A stretch of DNA of 64,000 bases from Schmidtea polychroa (taxonomy: Eukaryota), in NCBI GenBank assembly GCA_044892525.1, contig CM097887.1, positions 112,694,397 to 112,758,396 on the forward strand, given 5' to 3'. The translations under genes and the position numbers were made by a program. Below the pieces are notes generated by a model. That model was not told where the DNA came from, did no database searches, and saw nothing but the letters and a program-made list of their open reading frames with translations. Shown one piece after another: positions 22,764-59,409 of the stretch (within the stretch, counting starts at the first letter, position 1; each line of letters begins with the position of its first letter).

Positions 22764-22805
22764 AAGGAAATCAATGCGATAGGGAAAAAGAAAGGAACTA
22801 AGAAT

Positions 22806-31380: not shown

Positions 31381-33824
31381 ATTTCATTTTAATATCTTAT
31401 AATTTAATATATAATAATTAATTTAATATTAATAATATTTAGTTAATAATTTCAAAATTTTTAATTTATTTAAGTAAAAAGTAAACTCACCGAATAAAAA
31501 ATTTGTACATTTAGTTTTCTTCATTTAACCCCAAAAATCGCTAAAAAATTAATTAATTACTTTTATTCTAAATTTCAATTATTAATTTCATTAAAAGTTA
31601 CTGTAAGAACAGGAATGAGATTCAAAGTTCTAATTGATTTCCCCATATTTGGTTTCAATTTATTATCATTTATAAACTTTGGTCTATAGATCTTAGAAAA
31701 TGTGGGATGACATTCTATTTGTCAAGGAAGAAGTTTTACTTTCAATAAACATTTCAAAATTTCATTAACCCTTTCCTGAATGAGAAGAGGATGAGATTCT
31801 ATTTCGTATTCTCTTTTTAGTCATTCCAATTTTACTTTCTTTTCAAATTCGAGGTAAGGAAACTAAGTTTGACAAACATTAATAATAAAAAACAGAAATT
31901 CTCATATTGGCAGATTGAATTTCATTTAAATTTTTCCTTTTAATCAACAAAATTATATATTAGGTGAAAGTTTAATTAAAAATTAAGCAATATATTTCTC
32001 TTTTTCACTGCCATTGTCTAGCATTAACTATAAGTAAAATTTCTTAATAGAATAATTTTAAGATAAACCTACATAATAATGAAATGAAATAAAAAAAATA
32101 ACAAAAATTAATTATTACCTTGCCTTCTCACAGAAATAAAGGTTGTGATGAAAGTATTGGGAACAATTAAAATGTCTATTATGTTTCTACTACTTTAGTC
32201 ATTCCAATTTTACTTTCTTTTCGAAGTTGCAGAATAAAGTTGGCATTGAGAATGGTAATCGAATAATTGGAGTTTATTATAAATACAAAAGCCAACGAGA
32301 GAGAGAGAGCCTGCCTATCAAACAGCAGGGAGAAATCTATTGAAGAGAATGAGTTGCTGTGTATGATATTATTCCTTCCCGTTGATAGCAAAAAGCACAT
32401 TTTCAGGCACCTAAAATACCGAATCAGAGGAGAGATTTGGTAATGTGTCGGTCAGGCTACTCTCGAGTAGGCAGAGAGTGTGTTTGTGTGCACCAGTTAC
32501 ACCCAATTCCGAAATTGAGTAACCTCTATAATTTACGTTGGTGTGCACACCAGTTGAGTGAGTCACCATTTACGTGAAAATGAAGTTACTCAATTTCATT
32601 TATTCAATAATTTATTAGCAACAAAAATGGTTTTCAGGTAATTTCTTTAATTTCAAGTATATTTTAAGACTTGAATTTTGATCTTATATAATTATGAGAT
32701 CATTATTCAAGTTCTTAAATATTACTGTTAGTCATCATTTATAATATAATATTAATAATTAAATTTCAGGTGTTTTTTAGGAAATTAATGATATTTTATG
32801 CAGTAATATGGAATTATTTCGCTAAAATGTAAGTTAGATATTTTTATATTTATAAATAAATAAAATTAATCACCAAACACATTTATTTTTTTAAGACATT
32901 TAGGGAAAAATCGGCGTACATGAACGAAATAATTTTTTAAATTTTTATAATCTTCTTTCTGCAACTCATTTTCGATGGCTTTTTTCTTTCTGTAAATCAA
33001 AAGATCCCGAAGGACCTTCAATATTTGAAATGCTGCCTTCACACATACTATAAAATATTTTAATAGTTTGTAATTTAATGAATAAAACTTACATTGTATT
33101 TTCTTCTTTTAACCTAAAGCTCAAGGTAGAGCTGTCGGAATCTAAATTAAAATTATTTTCTTCCATTTTTTAATAATTTTAAAATAATTATATTTTAACA
33201 ATATATTAACAGTTATTTGATTCGGAAAAAAAACCTATATAAGAATTTTGCATGTATTTTTCATCATGTGTTTTGTGTTGAGTTATTTTTTCTCACCTTC
33301 ACAAAACCTACAATAAAGTTATTAAATTTCGGAATGATAAATTTCTACACACAGGTAAGTTTGTGTGTTCCTATAATATATATTTATTGATTTTTTTTAG
33401 ATTATAGAAGTTATTAAATTTCGGAATTAGGTGTATGTATAATACACACAAATACACACAAATGCACAGACGCAATAAATGTACGATGGTGAATAATTTT
33501 TTAAATGCTCAGTTGACTACTACTCGATTAATAGGAAATTTTTTTACCGCTTGTGTGTTTGGAAGGGGGTAAAAAAAACTCATAACTTGATGAGGATTAC
33601 ATGTAATATGCGTTTAGACTCACTCAAAAAGTTTCGACAAATTTCGAGATATTAATATCGGAATTCTCAGCCGAATTGTCTGAAATTATGTTGACAAAAT
33701 AAGATCGCAATCGTTCCTAATATGTCGTAGATAATTTTGACTGTGTTCGTGGCAACACATTGCGCTACATTGACGGAATACTTGAAATTGACCTTGGTGG
33801 CGATTTCTATTATGAACTATAGTG

Positions 33825-35218: not shown

Positions 35219-35975
35219 TCAATTTGCCATTAGTATGATATCAGCCCGATGGTCGTGACAGACAGAGATTATGCATTCTCCATCAGCAAAAGGAAGATTT
35301 TGGCTAAGAGCCCAACCATACAGATTATTTATATCAATATATAGTAATTCTGTATTATCAGAAGCAGCAACGTAATGTTTGTTAACAAATGTTAACCCAC
35401 CACGTATTCCTCCTTCGTAAAAATTGAACATTTCCATGTCCTGTAAAAGTTCTATAGGCTCAGTTAATGTCATAAGCGCTGAGGCCCATGACATACCCGG
35501 AATACCATAAAAGTTTAGAGGTTCTAGACCATTGTATGCAATGGCCTTGGCACGGAATTGTTGGAAATAGTCCGCAATGAGGAATACATCCAATTTTTGA
35601 TAAGTTAACATATAGTCAGCCAATTTAGTACAACGTTGTTGAGTCCAAATAAGTTGAGCCTTAGCATACTCATCTTCAGTAACACCAGACCAAATAGGAG
35701 GCAATTCATAAGTGGTTTCAAGTACATCCAAATCAGTCGCATAATCATAAGGAAATATGGCTTTAGCATCTATTATTAGCCTATCAAAAACCAACGAAGT
35801 CAAAGGAAGATCAGTTAGAGTTTTTACAGCCTTAGCCAAAGAACAATTAACAAATTGCATGCTGTCGATAAAACGAACAGCTAATTTTTTAATGTGAACA
35901 ATCATGAAAAGTTTGACAAACGAACTCAAGAATTTGGAAAGGCTTGTGGTGCTTCGCGTTTTCTTTAGCAGATAC
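35219..35975 (-). pseudogene. Protein-primed family B DNA polymerase fragment (Polinton/Maverick type)
   Basis: RFIDSMQF..SL..V..L; LDV.LIADYF..FR; LEPLNFYGIPGMSWA; IELLQD....EGGIRGG; LYIDINNLYGWALSQNLP. Truncated on both sides. Confidence 0.9.
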
Positions 35976-35989
35976 TTCAACATTTTAAA

Positions 35990-37214
35990 CGACAGCGGGG
36001 GAGATAAAGACAATAAAGACGACAATAATGACGAGAGAGACCGAAATGGGAATAAAGAGGAAAAGAAATCAGAGGAGAATAATCAAAGGAATAACGACTC
36101 AAGTACAGAAAAGGAGGAGAACACCCACGGAAACCGAACAAAAGAAGAAAAATCAAACAATGGAAAACAGAGGGTATGCCTACCTTTTACCAACAAGGAA
36201 ATAGAGACAAATATAATATTAATGATAATTGTACTGACCATGATAGAGTTAGTAACAGCCCACGGAGGAACGAGAACGATAAAGGAAACTAAGGTAGCCG
36301 AAAATCAGGACAGTAAAGAGGAAGAATTAAAACAAGAAAAGAAAAAGCAAGTACAAGAGCAACAGTGGGAATTAAAAGAAGAATGGGGCCTAAAGGAAAA
36401 GTGCATACTAGGAAGATGTATGTCTAGAGCGTATCAGAGATTAGTACTGATAAACGAGGACACAGAACCGATAACAGAAGTAAGAATACAAGAAGCATAC
36501 CGAAATCGAGACGGGAAAAGAATAACGAACGTGAAAGGAAAAGAGGTGCACCTAGGAAAAGGAGGTGAAGTAGTAATAACACAGCTCCAACCAAGAAAAG
36601 AACACAAAGTCTGTATTTCAAGATTAGGACCGGGTGAAAAATGCCATCAATATGTGACACAACAACAACCCCCAAAAAAATACACGGTTTGTCCCTGGAG
36701 GAACGAATCAAAAAGGGAATGCCGACGATACCCGGGGAAAAGAGGGAAGAAAAGAAAAAACAACGACGAAAAGGACGAAGGAGGAAAACACAAGAAAACC
36801 GGCGAGGAAGCTCAGGACAACTATGTTTCGGAGGAAGAGATGGAAAAAATACAAAAGATGGCAAAGGAGGGTATGAACGAGGAAATAGCAAGAATGCGAG
36901 AGATGATGAAAGGAAATGGGAAAAGAGGAAACGAGAAAAGTACAGAAGCGATATCAACATTAACAAACGAGGAAAAACCAGAGAGTATAAGCGTAAAGCA
37001 GATGATGTGGATCAGTGGGATAATAATAACAGGGGCATTTCTAATCATAACGGGGGGAACAATAAAAATAATTAAAGATAAACGACATCGCGGAGAACTG
37101 GAGATGACCCGAATCAGAAATTTCCAACATCGAGTGAAACGACCAAGTGATATCAAACAAGAACAGTGGGTGGAGGCCTGGAACGCTCAGCGCCCTCCAA
37201 ACTCACGTATATAG
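35990..37214 (+). CDS. Charged leader, signal/TM segment, FN3-like domain, charged stalk, TM, tail (5' end lost at the junction)
   Basis: IILMIIVLTMIELVTA; GGEVVITQLQPRKEHKVCIS...KCHQYVT; TM MMWISGIIITGAFLIITGGTI. Confidence 0.65.
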
Positions 37215-37374
37215 AAAGGAATATGACTGTATATAATTGTAAAAAGTAAGTATCTTTTATGTATATAACAGTACTATATCTTTATATAAGCGCGGTATCA
37301 ATATTATAAAATAACGGGGATCATAAAATGAAATTAACTTTAGATAAGAGTTGAAAAGTGTATATAAATTAAGA

Positions 37375-37734
37375 ATGGAGCAAGGAAATAACGAAATGAA
37401 CCACAACACAGTAACTGAAGAATTATGGAAGCAACAATGTGCCGTATTAGCACAATTAGTGTCTAATTTGCAAGAACGAGGACTGACGATGCAAAGGAAC
37501 CTAATCGAGAGTATGAACAGAGGATTTAGTTATTTAAAAATAATTGAAGACCAGAGGTTAAAAATCGAACAAATGCAAAGAGAGATAGAGAGGATAACCC
37601 AATATAGCCGAAGACAGGAAATCGAACTAGAAAGAATGATGGAGGAAGCAGAACAGACAGAAATGGAAGACTGGTCAGAATGGTTAACGAACAGGGGAGA
37701 GGGCGGACACGAAGCCGACTCTTCCGAACCATAA
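37375..37734 (+). CDS. Hypothetical coiled-coil protein, acidic tail
   Basis: 119 aa ORF from ATG 37375, heptad-rich, bounded by AT spacers. Confidence 0.6.
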   Translation: MEQGNNEMNHNTVTEELWKQQCAVLAQLVSNLQERGLTMQRNLIESMNRGFSYLKIIEDQRLKIEQMQREIERITQYSRRQEIELERMMEEAEQTEMEDWSEWLTNRGEGGHEADSSEP

Positions 37735-37819
37735 ACCAAACCTAAATTAAAATGTAAATAATTGTAAATAAAATATCGAACCTGTATCGATAAGAACTAT
37801 ATGTATATATAATTATAGA

Positions 37820-39208
37820 ATGGATAAACGACAAAGAGAAGAGTTCAGAGAGATCGTCGAACAAGTCAGAAAATCTACATCGATCAGAATACACAAACAT
37901 GTTATGTGCGGAATATGTGAAAAGTTGCTAAAGGAACCCCACCAAACCCTATGTGGATGCAGATTATGTAAGGAATGTATCAGTGAAGCAATAAAGAATA
38001 GACCACAGTGGTGCCCGGTGTGTAAAGAGACACTAATATCGAGTCTAGAAGACACTAACGAGGATAAAGCCGCAGTGAAAGACATGTTAAACACCAATCT
38101 GGGATGTAAAAATACCCCATGCGAGTGGAAAGGAGTAATATGGAAAGTAATGCAACATATGGGAGAATGTAGGTACAGAGTCGGCCATTGTGAAAGGTGC
38201 CATAAAACCAGTCGAGCAAGCGAAGAAAAAGAGCATCAAAGCCAGTGTGAAGAGAGACTAGAATGATGTGAACATTGTGGAGAAATAGATACGTGGAAAA
38301 ATCTCATCATCAAACATCACAATGTCCAAGAGGAAAAGGTATGTGCAGAGTTCAGTGGGGAATGCCTGAACGGATGCGAGGAAGGGAGAATAATAAAAAT
38401 AGCCCAACACCTAAAGGAATGTGAAATGAAAAGAATGACATGTGTACTAGGTAAATGGGGCTGTCAGAAACTACTACACCGAGGAGAGTTACCACATCAT
38501 TTAGTAGAAAATGCTTCAACCCACGCAGAAATGTGGTCGACTGCGTTACAAGAAAGTGAAGAGAAAGTAAAACAAATGGAGATAGAGATAACATCGTTGA
38601 AAGTGTTAGTCAAAGAACTACTAGAAGAAAGAGAAGCGTTCGAAGAAGCTCGGGCAAACATAAAGATGCAAATAAATCGTATAGAAATCAGCAATAATCA
38701 GGCCAAGGTGCTACATCAAAAGATAACTGAGATAAATCTAAATGAAGTAATACCAACCGCACCCTACGTATGGAAAATAACGGGAGTAAAAGAAAGAATA
38801 CGAAAAGCAAAAACCGGAGAAGAAACAAAAATAACGAGTCCCGCATTCCAGTCTTGGAAAAATGGGTACAAAATGAAAATGAAGATATATCCCAACGGGG
38901 ACGGCACCGGATTAGATACACACTTTTCGGTTTTCTTTCTGTTATGCGAAGGGGAATACGACGAAATAATAGAATGGCCGTTCCAGGCGAAGATCGACAT
39001 CGCACTAATGAACGACCGAAACATCCACGAACAAAGCTTCAAGACGACGGGAAACCAAATGTGTTACCAGAGACCTACGGAAGAAGAAGGATCAGCAACG
39101 GGAGCGCCTACGTTCATTCTACAACAAAAAGTAGAGGATATGGCGAGAAATGACACAGTATATATCAAGATGACCGTGAGGAAAGAGGGGAAGGGTAGAA
39201 CAGAGTAA
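37820..39208 (+). pseudogene. Intronless TRAF-family protein (RING, TRAF zinc fingers, coiled coil, MATH), one in-frame TGA at 38264-66
   Basis: CGICEKLLKEP.Q..CGCRLCKEC....CPVC; CKNTPCEWKG; WKITG..SPAF..GYKMKMKIYPNGDG.G..THFSVF..LCEGEYD.IIEWPF. The two ORF-track pieces share a frame with 53 open codons between them. Confidence 0.92.
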
Positions 39209-39402
39209 CCAATCGAATAATGTGGTATATAATAATCTGTATATATCGATGTATATAACCAATAAAATATTATATAATAATAGTATGAAAAACCCTAAAT
39301 ACGAAAAACCCAAAAATGATGCGAAAAATTTCCGAAGAAACAGTAACTAATGAATAAATTTTTACCATAATAAAAAGATTAATCGATATCTATGATTTAG
39401 AA

Positions 39403-39744
39403 ATGACACAAGAGAAAATAACCGAAACTACGATAGCCCCAACCAATACCAACAAGACACAAATTCGCCGAGAATATAGCGAAAAATGGAACAAAGTAAT
39501 GTTCCAACTAACTAACCTCACCCGAAATTACATCGAAGAAGCTAGAGAAGATGAGAACAGTAAATATCAATGGCTAATACACAATTTAAGAGAGGAGGCT
39601 GAATCGTGCAAAAGAGCGTCGAAATGGGCGTCATTAGAAAATACCCGCCAAGAAGCGCACAGCCACTACTTGAAACAGCTGGTGCAGGAAGCGAGAAAGA
39701 GGCTCACTGACGAAAACGCAAAACGCGAAGCGGAAAACAAATAG
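39403..39744 (+). CDS. Hypothetical helical protein
   Basis: 113 aa ORF; TTTAG|AAATG context. Confidence 0.55.
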   Translation: MTQEKITETTIAPTNTNKTQIRREYSEKWNKVMFQLTNLTRNYIEEAREDENSKYQWLIHNLREEAESCKRASKWASLENTRQEAHSHYLKQLVQEARKRLTDENAKREAENK

Positions 39745-39755
39745 AAGGAAGAAAA

Positions 39756-40414
39756 ATGATGCATTTATTGGCAGAGGCCAGAAAATGGAAAAGACAAAAT
39801 AGTGAAATGAAAAAGGAGATGAAAGAATTGCCCATGAGACTCGGATATGAAAGTGAACAGGGCAAATGGGAACAAAATTTAATAATAAAGGAAGAATTGA
39901 AACGGTTGAGAAAGGTCGCCGCCCGAAGCCAAACATGCAGACAAAGGCTATGGAGTTTGAGCGACATTTGGCAATGAAATGCGACATAAGAGAACACGAG
40001 AATGCAGCAATGGAAGAAATGATACTTCAGCAATCAGGACGAGTCGTGGAACTGGTAAATAAGGTCGCAGCACTGGAACGAGATGTCAATGGATACCAGG
40101 GAGCACTGGAACAAAGAAATATGGTATTAGCAGGAAAAAATAAGAAGTTGGAAAACGAATGGAAAATGTATACCGAAAATCTCAAAAATCTGGAGACAGA
40201 GATCGAGAAATGGAAGGGCGAGGAAAAGATAAAAGAGTTAGATAGACAATTAGAAGCCAAAGATGAAGAGACGAGATACCTCACCTATTTGCTCGACGAG
40301 GAATTGAATATCACTAGAGCATTACGAGATGAAGTTCATGAGTTGAGAGCTCAAATTCCCCAATATTACATACCATATGACATCCAGCGGTCGATAGCGA
40401 TGAAGGCTACGTAG
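39756..40414 (+). pseudogene. Coiled-coil protein, probably one frameshifted ORF
   Basis: Overlapping ORFs 39756-39977 and 39866-40414, E/K/L heptad-rich. Confidence 0.55.
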
Positions 40415-40603
40415 GCCAGGAGGAAACCTTCGTATAAAAGGGATCAAAAAGATAAAAAACTAAAAATCGGGACGTATATCCCAAACAAAAAAATTAAAGT
40501 ATTGTAAAAGTATTCAAGGGATTGTAACCCAAACTATTAAATTTTATATAAATGTATACGTATAAGTCGCACTATAGCGCACCATTAACTGTACATATTA
40601 TAG

Positions 40604-41311
40604 ATATGAAAATCAAGGAAATGATAGAAATCATGAGTGATGTGGAAGAAGGAGAGATTGTAACGGAAACAACAGAAACACAAACGCTAGAAGCAGAATT
40701 GCGGGCAGAGAAGTGTGAAAACGAGAGACTGGTAAACAAGTACATAGAGGACCGGAAAATAATAAAGATATTAAAGAAAGAATGCAGAGTGCTAGGGGAA
40801 GTAAAAAGAGAAGCAGAAGAGGAAAATGAATGGCTTCACGAACAAAGGAATGCGAGGGGAAAACTGGGAACAGATAGCGGAAGAACTATGGAAAGAAAGG
40901 GCAAGCCTTAAAGCAGAAGAAGTGATTGAGGACTACTGGAAAACTGAGGCGAAGGAGCGCCAAACAGCTATAAATAAATTAAAACGACAACTGGAAGAAA
41001 ACCAACGGGAAAGTAAAGAAATGAGGAAGTGGGTCCGCAAATATAGAGAAATAGAAAGAAAACATCAACAACAAAATTACCTGCAAGAAAACGAACAAGA
41101 CTTCCTACAAATTGAGCTAAAAAGAAACCTTGAAAAGAAAAGGGAAGAAATTAGACGCTTGGAAAAAGAAATTAGACATTTAAAGAGAGAAGCCCGTGAA
41201 AAAGACCGACAATTGGAAATGCTGCCCGAGTTAAGACACAGGGTTATTAAAGCAGAGTCCACCTTGATGAGAATCGCCGAAAATAACCCCAAATCAGAAC
41301 CATTAAATTAA
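40604..41311 (+). pseudogene. Coiled-coil protein, frameshifted
   Basis: Overlapping ORFs 40552-40911 and 40826-41311 with continuous heptads. Confidence 0.55.
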
Positions 41312-41347
41312 GGGTCACTAAGACCAATTGTAAATAAAACATAATAA

Positions 41348-42004
41348 ATGTATAATAGTATCATGCGAGGCGAGATGATGATAACAATGATGGTATTGAT
41401 GATTCTGATGGAGAGCCAACAAATAAATGCCCAACCGAAAACCGTACGAGATTACCGAAATCAAAATCAAGAACCCAAACAAGAATCCTGCCAATGCACA
41501 TACCCTATGACCGTAAAAACCAATATTATCCAAACCATTCAATCAACCCGATCACACATCAACAACATCCGAACAATGTGTAAAAAGAATCCCATTTGTA
41601 AAATGATAAACAAACAAATCCTCGAACAAATCCAACAATTCGACCAGTTGGAACAACAAATGCAACAAGAAAATTTTGGAAATCTTGTAGAAAAGCCAAA
41701 AACACCCCCAGAAACTAGCGAGGCTTATTATCTCATGTGTGTAGTGATCACCGAAACTACTTTATTGTGTCTGGTAACTCTCTTAAAAATTTACGAAATA
41801 AAGAAACAATGTCAAAGTACGAAAACCAACAACACCCAACCAAACCCAGATGAAATAACTAACACCATCGCAAGCCCACCCAGATTATCCAGTAACGGAA
41901 CTCCGCAACCAACATCCAGTCGTCAAAATTACATCAATCTCCAAATTCATCAACCACCCCAACCAGGCCGTCAGAGCAATCCATCTATATCGTCACTGAA
42001 CTAA
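41348..42004 (+). CDS. Predicted single-pass membrane protein (signal peptide, Cys-containing ectodomain, TM, P/S/Q-rich tail)
   Basis: MMITMMVLMILMESQQ; CQC...CKKNPIC; TM AYYLMCVVITETTLLCLVTLL; tail with NYINL. Confidence 0.65.
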   Translation: MYNSIMRGEMMITMMVLMILMESQQINAQPKTVRDYRNQNQEPKQESCQCTYPMTVKTNIIQTIQSTRSHINNIRTMCKKNPICKMINKQILEQIQQFDQLEQQMQQENFGNLVEKPKTPPETSEAYYLMCVVITETTLLCLVTLLKIYEIKKQCQSTKTNNTQPNPDEITNTIASPPRLSSNGTPQPTSSRQNYINLQIHQPPQPGRQSNPSISSLN

Positions 42005-42239
42005 AACATTGTGTGTAAATTAATGTGTATATGAACTATCACCTTAAGTGATACTGGCTTGGTCTTGCTTTGACCTTTATCTTACAATAAAATTTTTATC
42101 ATTGTTGTATAATTTTTCTCGTTTGTGTTATATTTTTTTTATGAATGAATGAGTTAAGTTAATTATGCAATTGCGGGACGCAATTTTGATGGGTCCCCGA
42201 GTGATTTGTTGGGCTGAATCGAAAATTTAATCGTTGAAA

Positions 42240-42870
42240 AATAAGAAAGTAGGAAAGTAGAACATTAAGGAAAATAAAAATAAAATAAATGAAATCAGAG
42301 ATAAAATAGAATAAGATATAAGGAAAATAATAATTAAGACATAAGAATTAAAACAAAAAATAAAATTAAGAAAAGATTAAAATAGAACAACAAGTTGACA
42401 AATAAATAAGGAGGAATTCAAGAAATAATAAGGAAATTAAGGAAATAAATAGAAAAACATATTAAAAATAAAGAAAATAAGGAAAAACAACCTAAAAACA
42501 AGAAAATTATATTAAATTAATAGAAATAAGCGGTACTCAACTCTGATTGGTCCGCACAAATAAGAATTTGCTATATATACAACCACCAAAATCATTAAAT
42601 TTACTGTTAACCCCGAGCATTTTATAGGTAAGAGAGAATGTTTAAATTGTCTACTGTTAACCCCGAGCATTTTATAGACATCCACAACTTACGGAGACAC
42701 ATTCAAGAATCAGAGACACTAACCGAGCAACAGTTCATTCAGAGAATTCATAGCTACTTACAATCAATTCGAAGCTAAGCGATTTGTCACAGCAATCGAT
42801 ATTCCATCAACAAACTCATTCAGAGCGACTCACATTAATTTTTCGATCCAGCCTAATTCGACAGTAAGGG
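42240..42870 (+). promoter_or_regulatory. Promoter module 1: A-rich tract, CTGATTGG (42543), TATA (~42572), short exon, GTAAG donor (42864)
   Basis: Same order as modules at 52210 and 59410. Confidence 0.55.
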
Positions 42871-44848
42871 ATTTTATTTCATTTATTTATTTAAATTCGA
42901 AGTTAACAGTATTATGTATCTTTAATGAATAATTAAAAATTTTGAAAAATAACATTGACTCTCTTTTCATTTGATCCCAATTAATGATTTCGATAAAGTA
43001 AATAATTTAAAGGTCTAAAAGTAGTTATTAGTGATAAATGAGCGATTGCACAATCTTTATGATTACTGTTATGAAATACCTTTTTTATGATTTTTTAAAG
43101 TAACGAGTAACGTGGAGTTGAGGAACCGCAGATCATGGTATGAGGTGCCTTCGGGAGCTCTGCCGGTGGATCTGAGGTTCTTCAATCACGCAGCTAGATT
43201 GGGCCGAAATGTGAAGGTTTCTTCGCGGGTCCAATCGCTGAAGGATTGACTCAAAATTAGACAGAATGAGGAAAAACGATTTAGATTAGTTATATGAATT
43301 TAGAACGAATACCGAAATGTACAGTGATTGAGGTGGACATTACATCTGCAGTGAGTTTATTTCCATCCTGAGGAACCATGCGATCCTGAGTCTAACTTTT
43401 CGCTAGCATCGTCGTAATCAGTCCAATTTGACTCTAACATCGTACTAAATTCCACACTTATGTTCGGTTAATTAAAAATTAGGACGAATTCTATATTCCT
43501 TCATTTTTCAGTTAAAAATAAATAAAGCTCTAATGTATAAATAACATTTATTAAAATTAAAGTAAAGACATAACTCCTGATAATCATTTATTTAACTTAT
43601 ACTTACTAGTAAACTAGAAATACCCGTTCAGCAGTTTCCACACCATCACATCAGGATGTCTATCATCGAAATAATATCCACATAGAGTAGGGAGTTGAAT
43701 TGTAGAACTTTTTCATCAAGTAATATCTAGAATTGAGGAAAATCTCCAAACATAGTAAATAATTCCAAAAAATCCAAACGAGAGAATTGTCATGAAAATT
43801 GAACGGTTGAGAATTTGTCCATATGATGTGCGAGTGCAGATAAATTTTCCATTGAGTAACACTAGCATGACTATGGGTAGCAACACCAGCGTTGGAATTA
43901 CCTGAGAATTACACACGAGGATAGATGATAATCACGCAGCGAGTGCATGGCTAATCATAGTAGTCTGTGTTCCATATGTCGTATTTAGTGTAGATTCTAG
44001 CATTACGACTGATAACGACGGGATATTGATTACTCGTCATAGTAGCTCCATGAATAGCAGATGATGGCTCTCATGGATTTTGTGTTGAAATGCGATCAAC
44101 GAAAGATAACTACATGCAGTAACATTTCACAAACCACTCATCTGGAAAATTTTCGAATGAATTAAATTTAACTGATAATAGAATGACTAAATGGATAATA
44201 ATAGACAATTATAATTTGAATTAAATAATTTAAAGGATAACCGAATGACCAAGTGCGTAATTGTAGACCAGTATGAGTTAACCTAAATAATTTAAACGGT
44301 AAAGGGCATTGTTAAATTAAGTGGGGATAATTGGGACCTGCTAACTAATGATGGAAAACTAAAGCCAAGCGTTAATAATAGAGTCGGAAATTGTAAATTC
44401 GAGTGTTACGAGTGATCTAACGAACAACTAATAGTAATTTTGAATAATAGGTAAATTAATTCGAGTTCGTGAATAATAACATTTTGAATAATCACGGTAA
44501 ATGTTTTAAATGATAATTAAGGGTGTTTTAACAGCTACTCAAATGTACCTTTTAATAATCAGATATGTTTATAGACCAACAATCATGGGGCAATTTAGTA
44601 ATTAATAAACCTTCTCAATTTCTAAGTTAAAGATTTATTTGCATTCGTCAATGCTATCCCTTTACTGAACTATTCGTTAAATAAAAGCGATGTTACAAAA
44701 TCGTCTAGAAGGGAAATCCATCCCCCCACTTATTCCGAATACCCGCTAACTGCTGACAGTGACTAACCAACCTCATTCGACCTGCGATCTTATTCATATA
44801 AAAGATTTAGTAAGTCGTTATAGTTCCTTATTTTACAGTTGATCAATT

Positions 44849-45592
44849 ATGCTGCCAACTACGAAATCCACCTTACGTCCTTGCTTCTCTTGCGAGGACA
44901 AAAACGCGATTATAAAGGATCTTCAGGCCCAGATCGGGCGCTACAAAAAGAAGATAGATGAGCTGGAGGGCACTTGGTTTACCCCCGCTCAGATGAAGGA
45001 GACTCAAAAGAAGCTCCATCGTAGTGAGCATTGTCGGGACGCGCTCATCTCGGAAAGCCGTGCCCAGAGAAGCCTTATTAAAGAACAGTCAGAAGCGCTG
45101 CACAAAGTCTACGTACAGGCAGCTACCACACAAAAAATCGTACAGATTCCCATCAAAGAGGCCGATAACATCTTCCCGCCTCATCATAACCCCTCATCAA
45201 AACCATCTCCACCGTTCAAGAGACCATGTCGAGACTGCGTGGAGACCGAACTGTCACCTATGCGACCGGACGTTGTCATCACAGGTACTAGTAAGACCTC
45301 AACTGCTGGTACCTCTGTATCCGCTGCGCTTCAGCAAGTCGCATCTACAAGCAAACCCAAACAATTATCTCGTGCGGAACGTAAGAAGAGACAGCGTGAG
45401 CGCGCATCCACCAAGCCAAACATCCCATCGATAGAAAACTCAACCAGTGGTAGTAGTTCGCGCGTGTCCATCGACTTGACAGTAGGACCCCCGGCGCGCA
45501 TCATCTCAGCAGCTGGCGTGACGTTGGAGGAAAACGCCTCCGAATTCTTTAATCTGGATGAGTTACTCGCCGACACCGAATGGGGAAAGTAA
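44849..45592 (+). CDS. Repeated ORF family copy B, 247 aa (CxxC, coiled coil, Arg-rich motif, acidic-hydrophobic tail)
   Basis: Intact ORF; TTTTACAG acceptor 10 nt upstream; homologs at 46467, 54817, 57219, 58400, 27995(-). Confidence 0.85.
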   Translation: MLPTTKSTLRPCFSCEDKNAIIKDLQAQIGRYKKKIDELEGTWFTPAQMKETQKKLHRSEHCRDALISESRAQRSLIKEQSEALHKVYVQAATTQKIVQIPIKEADNIFPPHHNPSSKPSPPFKRPCRDCVETELSPMRPDVVITGTSKTSTAGTSVSAALQQVASTSKPKQLSRAERKKRQRERASTKPNIPSIENSTSGSSSRVSIDLTVGPPARIISAAGVTLEENASEFFNLDELLADTEWGK

Positions 45593-45862
45593 GAGAACCA
45601 CAGCGGCATTCCCGAAGCCTGTTGCGAAGTCGAACTACATTTGTTGGGGTGTTTTTCTTTTCCTTCGACAAACATTCGTGATGTGTACAGTTGAATCCTT
45701 GTGTCTAAATGTTGAAATTAATAAATTTTGTTGTTTTATATATTTTCGTTTATGAATAGTCAGACTTTGATTAAATAGGTTAAATAAAGCGTCTTCGAGA
45801 GCTAAGGAATAATCCCCGATATGTTTTCGCGAAATTCTGACAAACGGTGGTGTAATGAGATG

Positions 45863-46134
45863 GACGTAAGCCCTTCTATCGGCAGTCGTGAATGGGAAGT
45901 CGAGGCCTCAGCAAGGAGTAGTTTTAAGGCAGAAGCTCACCTGCCTGCTGGCGTCTCGCCTGCATAGTGCAGTACCAACGTGAAGTAATTCACGGGCACT
46001 ATGTTGGAGGAAAGTTATGTGGGGTTTCACTCCAGGTTGACAAGGCAGTAGCACATTTTATTCGAGATGGACAATCCACCCTTAGACCAGCCAATATCGT
46101 AGAGTAGTCAGCCGAGGTGTAACCCCAACATAAT
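45863..46134 (+). ncRNA. Structured RNA motif copy B (core 45863-46004, second domain 46014-46134)
   Basis: Stems GGCAG/CTGCC, GCATAGTGC/GCACTATGT, CGTGAA-GTAA-TTCACG; GTTATGTGGGG/CCCCAACATAAT. Confidence 0.7.
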
Positions 46135-46466
46135 GGTGGATACGAGCCCAGGGTAGTAATTAAATATCAACCTTAGATGAACTTACTTGCGTAACCACTT
46201 AATCGAATAAATCAAAGGGAGAGCTGCGAATTAAAATCGTTTCACCAACATGGGAAATTTCACCATCTTTTTCGCATTCGTCAAATCGACAATTTACACT
46301 TAAGTTGAATTGTGCTGTAAACATCTTAGTAACAGAGTTGGATGTTAAGATAAGTTCTTTCTTGGTGTTCGTTGAATACCCGCCCGCGAATAGCCAGTTA
46401 GTCGAGTCTATATTTTAAAATTGATTCTTGTATATTCCACATCTCACATTTGCCTTTATAGTTATC

Positions 46467-47216
46467 ATGACACCAACTGCCAAGCCTGCGTTACGTCCTT
46501 GTTTTTCTTGCGCGGACAAAAACGCCATCATCAAGGACTTACAAACCCAGATTGGGAAATACAAAAGGAAGATCGATGAGCTAGAAGGGACATGGTTCAG
46601 TCCCGCTCAGATGAAAGAGACCCAGAAGAAGCTCCATCGTAGTGAGCATTGCCGGGACACTCTAATCTCTGAGAGCCGTGCCCAGAGAAGTCTAATCAAG
46701 GAGCAGTCGGAGGCGCTGCACAAAGTCTATATCCAGGCAGCCGCCACCCGGCAAATTGTCCAAATTCCTATAGGCGAAGCCGATCAGCTCTTCCCAAGGC
46801 ACCACGACACCTCGTCAAAGTCGTCGCCACTATCTAGAAAGCCTTGCAAAGGGTGCGTAGAGACTCAGCTCTCGCCCAAGCCAGCCGACGTGATCTTTAC
46901 CGGCACCAGTAAAACGACTCAATCTATCGTTTCTACCTCCGCCCTGCCTCTCGTCATTAGCAGCTCCTCAAAGCCTAAGCGTCGGCAACTGTCACGTGCT
47001 GAACGCAAAAAGAGACAGCGCGAGCGTGCATCTACAAAGCCGAACGTCTCCTCAACGGAAATTCCAACCAGCATCAACGATTCTCACACGACCATAGACC
47101 TAACCACTGGACCCCCAGCACGGGTTATTTCAGCAACTGGAGTAACCTGGGAGGAGAACGCCTCCGAGTTCTTTGATCTGGATGAGTTACTCGCCGATAC
47201 TGAATGGGAGAAATAG
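46467..47216 (+). CDS. Repeated ORF family copy C, 249 aa
   Basis: Intact from ATG 46467; CTTTATAG acceptor 5 nt upstream; 73/79 identical to copy B in the N-terminal core. Confidence 0.85.
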   Translation: MTPTAKPALRPCFSCADKNAIIKDLQTQIGKYKRKIDELEGTWFSPAQMKETQKKLHRSEHCRDTLISESRAQRSLIKEQSEALHKVYIQAAATRQIVQIPIGEADQLFPRHHDTSSKSSPLSRKPCKGCVETQLSPKPADVIFTGTSKTTQSIVSTSALPLVISSSSKPKRRQLSRAERKKRQRERASTKPNVSSTEIPTSINDSHTTIDLTTGPPARVISATGVTWEENASEFFDLDELLADTEWEK

Positions 47217-47491
47217 GAGGCCACGGTGAGCGTTCATAATGATATCCAAAGACTCCATCTACCTTTGTTGTGATATTTTCCCCTCTTATTAAAAACATGG
47301 AAATGTGCATGGTTAAGTTCTGTGTTGTAATATAGTAACCAATAAACCTTACTGTCTATTTTGTTTTCTTTTCCTTTCAAGATTAGTCTGATTATGATTA
47401 AGGACGTCGAGCTAAAAACTTTAGAGGCCCAGTAAACAAATGCCGATCTGTGCTCAACGAAATTTCGCTAGGCGGTTGGGTACTGAGAACG

Positions 47492-47764
47492 GACGTAAGC
47501 CCTTCTATCGGCAGTCGTAAGTGGAAAGTCGAGGCCTCAGCAAAGAGTAGTTTTAAGGCAGAAGCTCACCTGCTTGCTGGCGTCTCGCCTGCATAGTGCA
47601 GTACCAACGTGGAGCAATTCACGGGCACTATGTTTGAGGTCAAGTTATGTGAGGTCCCACTCTGAGTTGAACGGCGAAAACGGATAATATACGAGGTGGA
47701 CCATCATCCCTTAGCGAAAAGAGGTATCGTGGACAGAATCAATCGAGTGGTACCCCAGCATAAC
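47492..47764 (+). ncRNA. Structured RNA motif copy C (core 47492-47633, second domain 47644-47764)
   Basis: 7 differences from B over ~142 nt of core; GCAA tetraloop in place of GTAA. Confidence 0.7.
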
Positions 47765-48627
47765 AGAAACATTTGGTATTTTATATAAAATAACAAACTT
47801 GAGTAAATTATTTTTTCTTGATTCCCTGATTTTATAAAAGTGAAATCTCGGGAATCGGGATTATAAAAATCCAGAAATTTCCCAAGATTACGCCCCGAAG
47901 AAATCCCGGGAAGGACCCACTAATTAAAAGTCGATATAATTATAGAATAAAGAGAATATTTAATGTAAAATTTTTATTTATTTTCATTTAGCAAATTAAA
48001 TTTACTTTTTATTGAATTTAAACGTCATTAGATTACAATATTTGTTATAAAATGTACTTTAACACACGGGCCATAAAAATGTTTCGCGGGCTGGATGCGG
48101 CAACAGCTAGCTAGCGCTCCGATTTACTGTAACTTACAAATCGTAACTATTTACTGCTCAGCAAACATTAATTATTTCAATTCAATTCCATGTTTATGAA
48201 ATGAATAATTGCCTACAATAATCCTACATATTTATAAATCCTCGCCTGCAATGATGATCATCACATAATAATTTACAAAACGAAACAATTGGTTGCATTT
48301 GAATTTCGTGAAACAAATTTCTTCTAATTTTTATCAGTTGAGATCTGCATCGATTTCAAATTTTAAAATGAATATTGAATTTGGTTATTGAATTTTTGCA
48401 TAATTTTGAATTTTGGTTGCTGATTTTGGAACTTCATTTTTAGAAGTACCAATAATGTCGATCCCGCTTCTATTGGGTATGAAATTATTGTTGATGATGC
48501 CCCGTTTCTGTTGGAGATGATGCTGCAGTTGATGCCCAGAATGTATTTTAGTTGCGGATTCGGAATAAAAATGTGAGTTTGTATTTGTTATGTATTGTAA
48601 AAAGAACTTCATAATAAAATATTTAAA

Positions 48628-52075: not shown

Positions 52076-52209
52076 AAAGTGCTGTGCTAAAACCTGAATT
52101 TTCTATAAAGTGTTGGGCTTAAAGTTATAGAAACCGGAATGAAGCTGTAAGAATTATAAAAATCGGAATGAAGCTGTAAGAATTAGAAATGGGGACGAAT
52201 TGTTAAAAG

Positions 52210-52885
52210 CTACCCTTTTTACAAATAAATAAAAATTAAATACCATATTAAATAAAGTTGAGTGGAATAGTTAAGAAAATTAAATAATAAAAGGAGAAAA
52301 CAAGAAATTAAAAACAACAAGAAATCCGTGTAAGGAAACCATGAATACTACAAAAAAAAACTACAAATCAAGTAACCATACAAACAAATAAAAGAAAATA
52401 ATTAAATAGGACAACGAAACAACAACGGAGAATGAAAAATAAATAAAGTTCAGCATAAAAACATAAAATAAACACAAAAGAAAGTTAAAGTAGCAAACCA
52501 CACGCAGAATTATCAACGGAAACCCACTAAAATATGTAAAATATAAAAATTAAATAACCGAATAAAATAGATAATTAAAACAAATAAATAATATAAGGAA
52601 AATGAATAAAAACCTAAAAAATAAAGAAAATAGTGAAATTACACCCCAACTAAGTCCTGATTGGACGAAAATTAATATATAAAGCGGTCATTTAGTTAGT
52701 TCTAAATTTCTAAATTCTTAGGACAGACTCCTACTAAGTAAGAACCAGTAAAATCACAGGGACTTACGATAAAACTCCAAGGACAACATTCTAGATATCA
52801 AATCAATTATTACAGCTTCATTCCGAAGGACTCAACGAATCGATTCAGCCTATTGAACAACAGAATTAAGACAAAAGTAAAACGA
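52210..52885 (+). promoter_or_regulatory. Promoter module 2
   Basis: A-rich tract then TCCTGATTGGACGAAAATTAATATATAA, 28 nt identical to module 3; donor-like GTAAAA at 52877. Confidence 0.6.
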
Positions 52886-54816
52886 TTTTTATTTTTATTT
52901 TATTTCATTCATCCACATATATATTAAATCACGAATGTAGTTGTATTAATTAAAATATTATGATTAACCAAAATATCCAAATTTTCTCTTCATGGAGCCC
53001 AGCGACGATACCGTCTGGACGTCTGTGTATGATTGCTAATGCCGCCCCGAAAATTACGATGCAGGATATCCATGAATTACAACGATTACGAGATTTCAAG
53101 AGGATTTGAAGGTCATCAGCAACACTAGTCGGGAATTATGATAATAATATTGATTTTGGAGAAAGATTTTGTAGCAGACGTATAGATTGAGTTTAATGCT
53201 TCGGTATAAGAAATGACAAATGGGGTGATGATCATCATATGCAGAGGCAAAGGATATGGTCGCTGGTAAGTAGTATTTATGTATAATGATTGGTATTTCA
53301 TATATGTTGATTTTGATTTATTATGATAAACATGCAAATAAGGTGTCGAACCGTCTAGCGTGGTCGTCCGATAATAGTCGGTACTTGTACCGGTGGTTTT
53401 CGGGTGAACCATGAGAGGTGGTAAGACGGAAAGTAGCTCGACAAAAAAATTGTTAAATGCAGAGAGGAGTGGTAGTATCATCTTCGAGGTGTAAGAAAAA
53501 TCCAATGTAATCACAGGCGATAATTCAAAGATAATTCAAATTACAACAATTTTGAAATTGTAGGCTTTCCAGACACAGAATAGTCACTGAGAGGACTTTC
53601 GTAGATCAGTTATTTAATTTCCGAGGATTTGCTAGCCGACACCGTCTCAATAATCACCAGTATCTTTTCACGTTAATTCTTTACCAATCTCATTCTCGGT
53701 TTGATAACAATTATCTCACGTTTAGTACGACATTTTCTGCGAAATCGGATTTACAAACATGCACAGATATGGACTAGGGAGAATTTTTCAATAAATCCAG
53801 TTATCGTTTTAGTAGCTACAATCCATCATTTTCCCATGAAAATTCATCGACGTAAATTCTCGCGATAGATCAATCAGTTGCCTCATCGAAATAAACAAGA
53901 TGTAGGTATCAGCTTCGCCGTCTCGTCCGGTTGTTACGAGGTAATTAAGATTGTTTACAAGTTTTCGTAAACACATTAAGAATCCTTCATGTACATTGCC
54001 AGATCTATTATCTTAAATCACTTTTAAACAATTCGGGTCGACCGCGACAAAATTCAGTTTTAACAATCATCGTAAGATTGACCATTAAACCGATAGTCTT
54101 GATCTACTACCGGATGAACCGGATAAACACAATAGAAGCCATAAATCAATTCGGAAATTTCACCTTCAACTAACGCTATCATTTAGGTAATAAAAATGAC
54201 ATAATCCTTGCAGAATAAATAATATCATTGTGTAAAATAAATAAGCTAATTCTCGTAAAGTACATAATTTAATTCTCGTAAAATAAATGATAAAATTCTA
54301 GTAAAATAAATAAATAAATGCCATTTAGTGCCACTCACGAATTGAGAATTTGACAACCATATAGCTATATTATAATTACTGAGGTATTCAGTTCATTCAG
54401 TCGAAAAGATACTTAGAGATTTAAAGAAATCATATTTCTAGAATACTAGCACCAATCAACCGAGTAAATACAAGCGTTAAGAGACAGTTGTATGCCTTTT
54501 CCGAGTTACACAAATTTCGAGTTTCATAATGATATCGGACGTCACCATACTTTCGTAATACCCCCACAGTTAACCTATGACCTATCTAGATAATTTGCTA
54601 CACATTAAATTATTAATTTGTTTCATTTTTGATCAAGTCCTTCCCACCCTTGAACTTAATCGACTGCATAAATTTCCGAGCTAGGTGTATGATGCGAATA
54701 CTACAAATGATTACACCATATAGTTATCATTCTTGGGAAATCTGACCAACGAGCACGTCCGAATATTGATTAGGTAAACACCTCAACGAAGTAAAAATTG
54801 CATATTATATTTAGCT

Positions 54817-55390
54817 ATGTCGGAGCCAAATTTACCTCCTCGCGGACCAAAACCGTCCTTTCCATGTTCAGACAAAAACATGGATATCAAGAAGCTGCAC
54901 ATAGGGGTTCTCAAAAAACGTATCGACACGCTAGAACACACGTGGTTCTCCCCACCACAAACGAAAGAGGAGAAGATGAAGGTACTCAGATTAGAGCACT
55001 GCCATAACAGTCTCTTAGAAGAAAGTCGTCAACGACTGACTATTAAAGCACAATCCGAAGCCCTCCACAAGATCTACTCCGAATCGGAATTACAGAAACG
55101 AGTTAGAGAATACCCGATCAAGGACGGGGTAAAGGTATTCCCGCTTCACCATCGAGCGGAGGAGAAATCATTGAGCCCGTTCTGAGCAAGGCAGCGGAAA
55201 ACCCTACTCTTTCTACACCTATCACTCATGAGACCATTCCTATCACTCACCCAGTCAATACCGAAAAATCAGTCAACTCAACTCCTGAGAAACGTAAACG
55301 GCCGCCTAGAGCCGATCGAACAGCAAAACGAAGAGAAAAGATGGAGGCATTAGAGGCTTCGTTATTTGCTCCCCAATCCGCTGTTGGGCT
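54817..55390 (+). pseudogene. Repeated ORF family copy, frameshifted at ~55180 and 3'-truncated
   Basis: FPCSDKN.DIKKL..LKKRID.LE.TWFSPPQ.KEE..LEHC..QSEALHKIY; KRKRPPRADR in the next frame; TTTAG acceptor 2 nt before ATG. Confidence 0.8.
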
Positions 55391-57218
55391 AAACTTTGAG
55401 GGTGAGAAAACTGGATCGAATGAGAAAAAGAAGCCCGAAAAAATTAATAAAATAAGATAAAAATAACTTGCAACCAAAATCTTAGTAATATATAGGAAGA
55501 AACAAATAAAATACCAATAAAAGAAATAGGAATAAGTAACAAAATAATAAAACCCTTAAGATTTAAAAATAAGACAAAAAGGAAACTACCTAATGCGCAT
55601 AACAGATAAAGGGGAAATAGAATAGCAAAAATGTAAGAAAAATAAACGAGAAATTAAAGAAATAGAATAAAAATAAAACCATTCCTAAATAAATTCGTAA
55701 GCTAATTAAAACAAAAAATTATATCGCAAAAAAATGACAATAAATCTATAGAAGATAAGAGAAAAACAATAAACATTAAGAAAATAATAAAATAATAATA
55801 AAAAATAAAATAAGGTCACTAAAATTCACCATATTATCTCCAGCAGATTTGGAAGAGACAGCGAATTGAACGAATCTCTTGAGTAGAAGAGCTTACAGGA
55901 CGTCTGCAAAATATTCAGTTCGACTCTTTCCTGACTCATAATATAGAGGTACACAATTTTCGTGTAAGGTGTAGTCACTAGAAATCTTGGTCGGAGACGT
56001 TTATAACCAGCACAATCCAACGTCTTTCCGAATAGACTGACATGATTTGACATGAAAGTATGATAGCATCAATAGAGTGTTAGCGGCTAAACCTGATTTT
56101 TCGTCTAACTAAACGTCCGAAGCAGGATCTGCAATTAATGTCTTTGACAGACAATTATCAGATAAGAATCGCCTCTACATAGAATTAATTCTCCTTCGAT
56201 AAGTAAGGTAAACAATCGCCCGGAGTTATGACAGACTGCACGAGAATTAGCATTTGATTAGAGTTGCCCGGAGAATCACTGACCGTTCTTGATAAGTCAC
56301 GATCGAGGCAAATCGGCCCACACACTGAACTGCTGGGTGTTTACCATAGTAGAGATAAAAATCTCCGACATATCACCAGCTAAGACAACTTCTAGATATC
56401 GGCATGAATTTCCAGCAGACACAGCAATTGATAATGTCAACAATTAGGAAAATCGCTAGTTCAGCCAACTTACCGACGAAAAATTTCCATTTGTCAGCAA
56501 GATTAGATCATGTCAAGAGGCTCATTACAATACAGGCACACTAACGCATTGCCTAATTTTTAGGATAGTAGGTATTCCCGCTTCACGGCAATGATGAGGT
56601 GAGGCACAGTCGTAGCCAGTTCGTGTGCTCCGAATAGATAATGGGGTTAAGACATAATTAGATGCTGTAAAAATCCCCATTTCATTTTTAGACGGGAATA
56701 TCTCTAATGATTACCTAACATTACATAATCACGATTCATGTTCCTACGATAATTTTCACTTCCCCTAACAAAATGTCTAGTGCGTGGGCGATATCGGTTA
56801 ACATACTTACTAGAAAGGAATCGCTGGCTTATGAATAATACGCGCAATCAACTAAAACAAATTCACCTAATGGTCGGGCGTCAAATGCAGTTACCAGCCA
56901 GTAGCAATGAGGGGCAAGAGCGATATTAGGTACACATAAAATCTACTAATAAAAATAAAATAATGATTGTCAAATTAAACTAATCACCATATTGGTAATA
57001 TCGCGAATGGAGTTGATAATCCCCGTTTTCTTTTGCATGAATTGCGTTAATGGAGCGTGGGTCACCTGTGGGTAAATTTTGAATGTCATGCGAGTGGTTA
57101 AAATTTACTAGGAGTCGCAGTAGAAGGTGGCGAACCACAGTCGGTATCCACTATCTGATACTATAATAATGTATGAACGATTGTAAATGGTGATGATAGG
57201 AATTTTCTTTAACTCTAG

Positions 57219-57983: not shown

Positions 57984-58265
57984 TCTGGAACAGCACCAAC
58001 TTCCAATCCATTTCCTCTGAAAATGATCCTCAGCATCGTCTGACAATCTGTCTGTATGTTGCCCTCTGCTTTGTAATCTTCTATGTAACAAGTTATTGTA
58101 ATTCGTGTGTTTTGTTGGATTAATATAATTTTTCTTGGCATTTGATGAGTTATTTACGAGATTGTTAAGTGAATTGCACGACTTGATTGATAAATTGAAT
58201 GTAAGTCATCAGATGAGGGTCGTCCCCCTGGACCAGGGTCGTACCGAGTTATGTATGAAAGCATG

Positions 58266-58402
58266 GGTAAGTCCTTCTACGGCACCTTAGAACCCGAACC
58301 GTGAGTGAGTTAATAGTAGTCCTAAGGCAGGGGCTCACCTGTTAGCGAACTCCAACCCATGTGCTCATCACCAACGTGTGAACATCATCACGGGCACACA
58401 TG
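58266..58402 (+). ncRNA. Structured RNA motif copy D
   Basis: GGTAAGTCCTTCTACGGC...TAGT..TAAGGCAG-GGGCTCAC-CTG...CACCAA-CGTG..CACG-G-GCAC. Confidence 0.6.
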
Positions 58403-58660
58403 AGGGATATCAGGAAAATCATCACAGATATGCTGGGAGAGGGGACTGAGCGAACTAGACCAATGGTATGCCCTGTACTGAAAACTTTCTTTCCTCCCCA
58501 CATAGCCAACACCGCTATCACTAAGATCAGTACTAACCCTCAGCCAACGGTACTACCTGACTCATTCAGAATAATTTCACCGGCAATAGTGGCACTGGCG
58601 AGAGATCCTGGACTGCAGGTTGATATTGATGCCCTGCAGACCGAGGGAGAAATGATGTGA
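58400..58660 (+). pseudogene. C-terminal remnant of the repeated ORF family
   Basis: RIISPAIVALARDPGLQVDIDALQTEGE aligns with copy D RVVPADGIKFIADRRLPVDIDEMLAEGE. Confidence 0.55.
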
Positions 58661-59354: not shown

Positions 59355-59409
59355 AACAAAAGTAATTAAATAAAATCTTGTTTTAACATCAAATTGGGGT
59401 AATCAGTCA

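Follow-up and report, generated by a model that had tools for sequence, protein, structure and literature searches.

A giant retroelement of the planarian Schmidtea polychroa carries a gene inside its long terminal repeat (LTR). The window analysed, i.e. the whole AT-rich stretch of 64,000 nt at positions 112,694,397 to 112,758,396 of contig CM097887.1 (forward strand, assembly GCA_044892525.1), contains at 42207–46130 (+) the 3.9-kb 3′ LTR of a giant Ty3/gypsy element of the Burro/GYPSM1 type. The anatomy and identity of this LTR, the selection acting on its open reading frame (ORF), the conservation of its splice signals and two conserved RNA elements, one in the intron and one in U5, form the established part of the analysis. 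The element family is already known, and the LTR-internal gene with its RNA elements appears to be what is new. The layout suggests self-regulation akin to that of complex retroviruses, and the best model, still a tentative one, makes the protein a Rev/CERV-like switch of unspliced element RNA. Sequence types are designated B (ORF and LTR of 42207–46130), C (46131–47760), D and E (solo LTRs of the window); further types compared are X1, X3 and Y1 (full elements), C2, M, M2 and F. Genome searches covered the 781-Mb assembly (four large contigs).

The LTR measures 3,924 bp, reads TG...CA, and its homology to paired terminal repeats begins at 42207 and stops at 46130. Among 150 scored of 6,956 candidate genomic matches to ORF B, same-strand pairs ∼26 kb apart are frequent, and matches to ORF E behave alike, because each terminal repeat of a giant element includes the ORF. 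In the three elements fetched, gag/pol is flanked by terminal repeats 98.6–100% identical, with a 4-bp target-site duplication (TSD) readable in two. The repeats of X1 (3,842 bp, 100% identical) start with TG, end with CA and are bordered by the TSD CTAC; those of Y1 (4,192 bp, 99.9% identical) start with TG; the other TSDs are ATAA (X3), AAAG (D) and CCGC (E). Right after the 5′ LTR, an 18-nt site is complementary to the 3′ end of the tRNA-Pro(TGG) encoded in this genome. The internal frame of X1 (4,732 aa) encodes gag, CCHC knuckles, a fusion glycoprotein, protease, reverse transcriptase (RT), RNase H, integrase and ankyrin repeats, with TRAF/MATH in a separate ORF downstream of the polyprotein. 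Since this polyprotein layout is the one described in the text of PMC6431247, the element is placed in the Burro/GYPSM1 class, an assignment by layout and description in which the named families Burro1–4 are known here from description only. The first-pass annotation of this DNA, which had offered a very long LTR of a giant retroelement as one model, with Burro as the comparison and gag-pol adjacency and TSDs as the things to look at, was borne out in these respects.

Upstream of the LTR, the 3′ part of the Burro-type internal region (35980–42206, +) holds TRAF/MATH and coiled-coil accessory ORFs, with MATH/TRAF Pfam matches and 88–95% identity to the three full elements (90% to the 3′ internal region of X1 over 35980–41757). 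No BIR or BCL2-like domain is found at E≤0.01 in the Burro-type element here. The window element is truncated, the gag/pol-bearing 5′ part being absent from 35980–42206; a fragment of a type-B DNA polymerase (Polinton-like; 35219–36082, −) adjoins this truncated end. The U3 and U5 of the window LTR are 97% identical to X1, with exon 1 and the intron far more diverged, and the pS at synonymous sites between the two is 0.61 for the LTR ORF versus 0.32 for TRAF. Because U3 and U5 resemble X1 so closely but exon 1, intron and synonymous sites have diverged, the R cassette may have been exchanged between lineages. The tRNA-Pro(TGG) genes form a long tandem array with a 475-bp period (contig C1, from position 130901009; ∼2,190 matches genome-wide), and the tRNA of this array is the primer tRNA of the element. 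One fetched LTR end is followed by its own inverted copy, giving a palindrome of ∼450 bp.

These boundaries bear on two further proposals of the annotation. An independent non-autonomous mobile unit is not supported, for the unit is the LTR itself. A mobile unit of retrozyme, viroid or ribozyme type, to which short conserved loops in a structured RNA and a resemblance of two short words to twister-sister loops could point, is barely credible: no Rfam ribozyme family appears at E≤1 in the window or in nine loci, no hammerhead core occurs on the sense strand of seven LTR stretches, and in its ends, TSDs and primer site the unit is an LTR.

All the parts of the gene that the annotation had listed can be read in the sequence. 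The A-rich U3 (42207–42581, +) bears an inverted CCAAT box at 42543 with a TATA box behind it, an order common to B, X1, E, D, F and one further LTR type; the M-type LTR has a TATA box and an initiator-like site. From a transcription start placed by sequence near 42600, a putative non-coding exon 1 (42600–42863, +; start approximate) leads to a putative intron of 1,975 nt (42864–44838, +) with its donor GT at 42864 and its acceptor AG at 44838. The ORF of 247 codons follows (44849–45592, +), then AATAAA (45720–45725, +) and a U-rich tract, with the putative R/U5 border just downstream; X1 is alike. Variant hexamers replace this poly(A) signal in E, and none is seen at the matching place in F. 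Most full LTRs examined have a donor and a T-rich tract ∼100–340 nt after the promoter set. An ATG is present in 44 of the 49 distinct ORF-start contexts, and under a strict rule YAG lies within 12 nt in 38 of these 44. B and X1 cannot be aligned over most of the intron, though the acceptor is kept near the ATG. No intron-less LTR of the B/X1 type was matched genome-wide (0 matches) by a pattern whose two halves are both present in loci examined and which covers B/X1-type ends only. The LTR gene is presumably transcribed. The 42864–44838 joint is absent among the 15 joints listed, out of 39, from public sequencing runs of uncertain type (RNA by guess), one of which covered U3 and intron as DNA would; depth in the DNA run peaks in U5 and at 43019–43235. 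Within exon 1, a putative 50-nt mini-intron (42628–42677), derived from a duplicated AG/GT unit of ∼50 nt, holds the only ATG of the exon, and a similar duplication exists in X1 and Y1.

In M-type LTRs the coiled-coil exon opens AG|TG at a fixed place in eight of eight contexts, mostly without an in-frame Met, and exon 1 ends in A in five of five M-like LTRs (in G in two ORF-less M2 copies). As an exon 1 ending in A meets an exon opening AG|TG, the M-type loci examined, from which this evidence comes, suggest that the start codon is made by splicing. Upstream of the coiled-coil exon, M-type LTRs (a 4,286-bp example and others) contain a second ORF of ∼120 aa with its own acceptor and ATG and without a Pfam match, so that two alternative last exons stand behind a single exon 1.

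The 247-aa product of ORF B comprises a CxxC motif, two long helices that meet at a conserved W-x-x-P turn (mean pLDDT 84), then a disordered linker, a K/R-rich helix (∼aa 172–190) and an acidic-hydrophobic tail. Purifying selection on the LTR ORF is supported by a ratio of nonsynonymous to synonymous substitution (dN/dS) of 0.05–0.14 in the 12 unsaturated of 26 pairwise comparisons; in the other 14, synonymous sites are saturated and pN is 0.18–0.26. The data support a selected, probably spliced, basic coiled-coil protein, much as the annotation had it, except that ‘Arg-rich’ was too strong for this genome: the basic helix, present in 12 of 12 proteins scanned, has 9–11 K+R per 20 residues, 5–7 of them Arg. 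The last 25 residues of B, C, X1 and C2 include 7–9 D/E; M proteins lack the acidic-hydrophobic tail, yet are under the same selection. A model with two copies gives an in-register parallel homodimer with a score of 0.61 versus 0.01 for the best of three controls, contacts agreeing by ≥90% between runs and a pLDDT of at least 79. The score mark used is met by 21 of 30 solved pairs and none of 23 single chains in a microbial calibration, and by 17 of 29 solved pairs and none of 30 single chains in eukaryotes. The protein is thus predicted to be dimeric, with the proviso that coiled coils may pass such a test by likeness.

The protein has no Pfam match above cut-off, and fold searches return generic helical hairpins only (best Z 10.3, rmsd 1.3, 64 residues aligned), not above background. 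A word-index protein search, single or profile, finds no homologue, and viral or metagenome contigs contain none. Among 1.84 billion representatives, ten weak matches (E 4e-7 to 7e-4) occur, all singletons, and an N-RRRRERRR-type run is seen in six of them. Most of the ten are gene models fused to unrelated pieces of host genes, fusions that may be artefacts of annotation or the product of genuine splice trapping by solo LTRs. One fused homologue probably comes from another species, because its host part is 56–90% identical to this genome but its ORF part at most 41%.

Such a protein could instead be a transcriptional transactivator or anti-silencing factor (Tat/Tas/Tax-like) acting on the LTR promoter or on nascent RNA, in which case the intron hairpin described below, ∼500 nt past the start, would be a TAR-like site. 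The dimeric coiled coil, the basic segment, the acidic-aromatic tail and the lack of a nuclear export signal (NES) in B and C would suit this role, as would the AT-hook-like RGRP motif at the end of the second M-type ORF. The explanation is nevertheless rather unlikely, since M proteins do without the acidic tail under the same selection, and transactivation alone leaves the intron and the poly(A) signal of the 5′ LTR as a problem.

Several other LTR copies in the window bear the same ORF and motif. The annotation had read B and C as a tandem repeat, but they are no tandem duplication. The C copy (46131–47760, +) stems from an LTR of another subfamily, of which it makes up the 3′ half, with an intron end, an ORF (46467–47216) and a U5 motif from 47492; eight other genomic copies cover 46131–46620 almost fully at 91–94%, and four of the five copies inspected continue upstream into their own exon-1/intron region. 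The solo LTR D (52111–59358, +; TSD AAAG) has a decayed ORF, interrupted by a second solo LTR, E (55382–58511, +; TSD CCGC), whose ORF spans 57219–57983. The promoter/exon-1 part of E is deleted, and a relative retains it. Of the two units that had been proposed at 57219–58402 and 58400–59354, the motifs therefore stand, but there are not two units, E being nested in the ORF of D. More distant families are represented by a decayed 3′ part of an M-type LTR (27291–28112, −), with a coiled-coil exon interrupted by stops, a U5 motif and an LTR end, and by a decayed LTR fragment of a further family (112–787, +) that ends after U5 domain III.

The U5 motif forms the final ∼270 nt of the LTR and borders on the tRNA-Pro primer site. 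It is probably outside the ORF mRNA, because it lies 3′ of the poly(A) signal at 45720. As the annotation had noticed, the segment 45863–46003 recurs at 47492 (95% over 149 nt), ∼58270, ∼59150, ∼650 and ∼27480 (−). Four domains can be distinguished. Domain I (45863–45887, +) presents a conserved CCTTCTAT loop in a weak hairpin without thermodynamic support (z −1.8 to +1.4). Domain II (45902–45957, +) consists of a long stem, an internal loop with a conserved CAC and a short upper stem, and domain III (45963–46003, +) of a 9-bp stem, an 8 × 1 internal loop (AGUACCAA opposite G) and a 5–6-bp stem. Domain IV (46019–46130, +) is a terminal stem that closes near the LTR end and, in 5′ LTRs, adjoins the primer site; it appears in the fold of each family with weak z-values (−2.1 to +0.4). 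The whole motif folds no better than shuffled sequences (z 0.24, 0.27 and −0.23).

Domains II and III adopt like folds from unlike sequences in the 12 sequences folded. Applied to 30 U5 cores aligned by plain MAFFT, RNAalifold returns only three pairs; as the helices vary in length and are out of register in this alignment, anchored pair counts were used. Over 18 sequences, domain III forms 12.8 of 14 pairs within a copy versus 9.2 ± 1.5 across families, and domain II 12.6 of 15 versus 10.0 ± 1.0. For domain III, the median of the copies themselves is reached by 1.1% of 278 cross pairs, and the value of the worst, decayed copy by 63%. In 20 new loci, picked by eye for diversity among matches to the motif pattern, domain III again gives 12.3 pairs within a copy versus 9.6 across; an ORF upstream is clear in eight of these loci, weak in one and lacking in 11. 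The ‘conserved RNA structure’ of the annotation thus holds for domains II and III, which covary, and not for the motif as a whole.

Protein and motif had also been said to be always paired. In the direction from ORF to motif this mostly holds (29/30, 15/15 and 11/18, versus 2/63 in a reversed control). In the other direction it fails: among the first 30 primer-site matches listed, all 30 have the domain III loop and 21 an LTR ORF, the nine without one, profile search included, being seven F and two M2 copies. The motif pattern has 7,656 matches genome-wide versus 13 for the control, a count that is inflated (22 of the first 100 matches listed are unrelated repeats) and indicates an order of magnitude only. 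No Rfam family matches the motif, and a likeness to twister, pistol and twister-sister finds no support in Rfam. Pairing of the AGUACCAA loop with the D-arm of the primer tRNA was rejected, genomic tRNA-Pro giving no 6-nt match there.

A placement of the gene in U3 would alter this picture: genomic RNA would come from a second promoter near 45750–45860, and the motif would be R. The AATAAA is 140 nt upstream of the motif, which as R would bring the signal near the cleavage site, and a donor-like GTAAG occurs in domain I of B, C, E, D and F; the Rex response element of HTLV-1 is located in R. This arrangement is very improbable all the same, as the only promoter-like CCAAT/TATA set common to the families is the upstream one, kept even in the ORF-less F and M2, M is devoid of GTAAG, and no common TATA box is found near the motif.

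The second RNA element, which the annotation had not listed, is a pair of long hairpins in the intron (43104–43243, +), a candidate response or export element that folds with a z of −6.4 on the plus strand versus −3.0 on the minus strand. This segment is 88% identical to X1, versus 30–34% for the flanking exon and intron start. In eight sequences, 96.6% of the cells pair and ten of 52 pairs change on both sides; none of 500 shuffles has as many two-sided changes, and slid controls reach 35–47% pairing. A measure based on pair types is not above shuffles, and since the structure was derived from the same related sequences on which it was tested, these figures are support, not proof. At the matching position, M and M2 possess a conserved set of hairpins of their own, with three of 40 pairs changing on both sides, and E has a long intron hairpin (z −4.9 to −7.2 in four of five copies, −2.3 in the fifth). 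Stable sense-strand intron hairpins are therefore present in the B/C/F, M/M2 and E lineages. The purine-rich internal loop of the E hairpin (GG opposite UGA/GUG) is reminiscent of stem IIB of the HIV Rev response element (RRE).

Families without the gene keep these structures. The F elements are ∼15.5 kb long, with LTRs of 1.6 kb (98–99.9% identical) and a gag-like frame; no pol match is detected in F and no RT match in M or M2. F and M2, which lack the LTR ORF, retain both the intron hairpins and the U5 motif. They are recently amplified non-autonomous families with the same tRNA-Pro primer site, and F accounts for seven of the 30 primer sites listed.

Under the Rev/CERV-like model, which takes up the Rev/RRE analogy of the annotation, the LTR is a transcription unit in itself, with promoter, exon, intron, ORF and poly(A) signal, and each 5′, 3′ or solo LTR could yield a short spliced message that encodes a dimeric nuclear protein. 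With a start near 42600, R would be ∼3.1 kb long and contain the whole gene. Replication would then need an RNA of ∼29 kb, transcribed through the 5′ poly(A) signal and with the LTR intron left unspliced, at the 3′ end at the least. The protein would bind a structured site found only in unspliced RNA and thereby promote read-through, stability or export of the genomic RNA. As the intron hairpins are located in the unspliced species, the pair at 43104–43243 fits as target and is the better response-element candidate; the U5 motif, weaker in this respect, would most likely serve the genomic RNA leader by the primer site, in packaging, dimerization, priming or poly(A) control. The ORF-less families would use the protein in trans. 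The complete Rev/Tat-like circuit within the LTR, with a dimeric RNA-binding switch, intron-hairpin recognition, a licence for read-through or export of a 30-kb genome, satellites without the gene and a splice-made start codon in one lineage, is a more doubtful proposition.

A number of observations weigh against such a switch. Binding of the protein to RNA is a prediction, and the splice, start and poly(A) sites are putative ones placed by sequence. The intron hairpins of B, E and M have no clear common sequence though the proteins are homologous, and ORF-less families keeping the RNA elements fit signals bound by Gag or by the host equally well. The basic segment could merely be a bipartite nuclear localization signal. 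No classical NES (leucine-rich CRM1 consensus) is present in B, C or C2, and matches to it in E, D and M lie mostly within coiled-coil heptads and are not common to them. With its acidic and aromatic residues, the tail has more the look of an activation motif, and it is missing from M proteins. The search for intron-less copies was confined to B/X1-type ends; an A before the donor also occurs in B, X1 and D, which own an ATG, and is not specific to a split start codon; and family F shows no visible poly(A) signal between intron hairpins and U5.

Part of this evidence would agree with protein and RNA elements being mere neighbours, the RNA elements acting as ordinary cis signals (for Gag, RT, tRNA or, like a constitutive transport element, for host export factors) and the protein being host-directed cargo. 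The U5 motif is present at all 30 primer-site loci listed and ends at the primer site, and it is 95–97% identical among B, C and X1, whose proteins differ by 16–26%. Burro elements, in the text of PMC6431247, bear many host-like domains, represented here by TRAF and ankyrin. A 6–7-nt match to the T-arm of tRNA-Pro stands at the same place in six of nine representatives (families E, F and M), as does the primer activation signal of HIV-1 in the account of PMC11251516. However, chance alone would give about one 7-nt match between a tRNA and a region of 292 nt, and B and C2 have none. Pfam and fold searches assign the protein no host-like domain, and placement in an LTR under the genomic promoter is costly, yet kept across lineages only ∼25% identical. 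This explanation too is on the unlikely side, and the Rev/CERV-like switch is retained as the preferred model.

The remainder of the window contains other mobile sequences. At 59360–60780, the head of a further LTR has an A-rich tract, CCAAT/TATA at 59809 and a donor; no ORF or U5 belonging to it was detected within the window. A decayed gypsy-type element (5624–17500), in which gag, protease, RT and a Monjiviricetes-like fusion protein are recognizable, has a DDE_3 transposon (6554–7834; inverted repeats of 77 bp) inserted in it. A small gypsy-type element (22634–27195) has an 862-aa RT–RNase H–integrase frame between direct repeats of ∼118 bp, and a mir-753 precursor at 32660–32721 scores over the Rfam gathering cut-off.

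Burro elements fill planarian genomes and are de-repressed upon loss of PIWI silencing, according to the part of PMC8532177 that concerns them. Because the whole of a selected gene fits in the LTR, a solo LTR is not an inert scar: each could code for protein and act as a splice-acceptor trap; if the circuit exists, thousands of solo LTRs would be among the sources of the spliced mRNA. If the Rev-like interpretation is true, complex-retrovirus regulation would have an independent origin here, next to CERV. Whether or not it is, an uncharacterized protein family and two RNA elements are added to a known element, and the covarying hairpins are concrete targets for binding and reporter work.

Among known systems, Burro is the closest. 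In the text of PMC6431247, Burro elements exceed 30 kb, have LTRs and encode a giant polyprotein with env between gag and protease, as well as MATH/TRAF, BIR and BCL2-like domains. The element here shares with Burro/GYPSM1 a polyprotein of 4,700–4,800 aa, a fusion-glycoprotein env in frame between gag and protease, the order protease–RT–RNase H–integrase, ankyrin repeats and a MATH/TRAF domain; it departs from the description in that MATH/TRAF is a separate downstream ORF and that BIR and BCL2 are not detected at the cut-off given above. The Burro account in the text of PMC6431247 mentions no gene, intron or RNA structure within the LTR. Titles and the beginnings of abstracts in the literature likewise describe no LTR-internal Burro gene, and Grohme et al. 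(2018), supplements or Repbase may annotate one. As for regulation, the CERV protein comes from a spliced mRNA of the Caenorhabditis elegans LTR retrotransposon Cer1, is nuclear, forms multimers and is needed for export of unspliced genomic RNA (described in PMC10309623). Here also an LTR retrotransposon has a protein from a (putative) spliced mRNA; compared by description, CERV is large, with three domains and a C4 loop, whereas the present protein has 150–250 aa and is encoded wholly inside the LTR.

Complex retroviruses use a basic nuclear regulator from a spliced mRNA to handle unspliced RNA, as outlined in PMC3856414. HIV Rev/RRE, HTLV Rex, MMTV Rem and HERV-K Rec/RcRE, in the descriptions of PMC3856414 and PMC6916052, resemble the system here in the putative spliced mRNA, the basic segment, the predicted oligomer and an RNA structure that lies in transcripts retaining an intron. 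Unlike them, the protein shows no homology and, in B and C, no classical NES, and its gene is contained in the LTR and hence in solo LTRs. With the retroviral U5 leader, as presented in PMC11251516, the element shares an RNA structure immediately 5′ of an 18-nt tRNA primer site and, in families E, F and M, a T-arm-complementary 6–7-mer like the primer activation signal. It differs in having no Rfam match, in the 8 × 1 AGUACCAA loop and CAC bulge specific to this clade, and in the lack of a T-arm match in B and C2. MMTV sag, HIV nef and foamy virus tas/bet are situated in U3, ahead of the start site, and depend on the 5′ LTR or an internal promoter for their transcription, whereas the ORF here is downstream of the LTR's own promoter and has its own intron and poly(A) signal. 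What the present gene has in common with sag, nef and tas/bet (for the role of Tas, see the account in PMC3856414) is an accessory coding sequence in or at the LTR.

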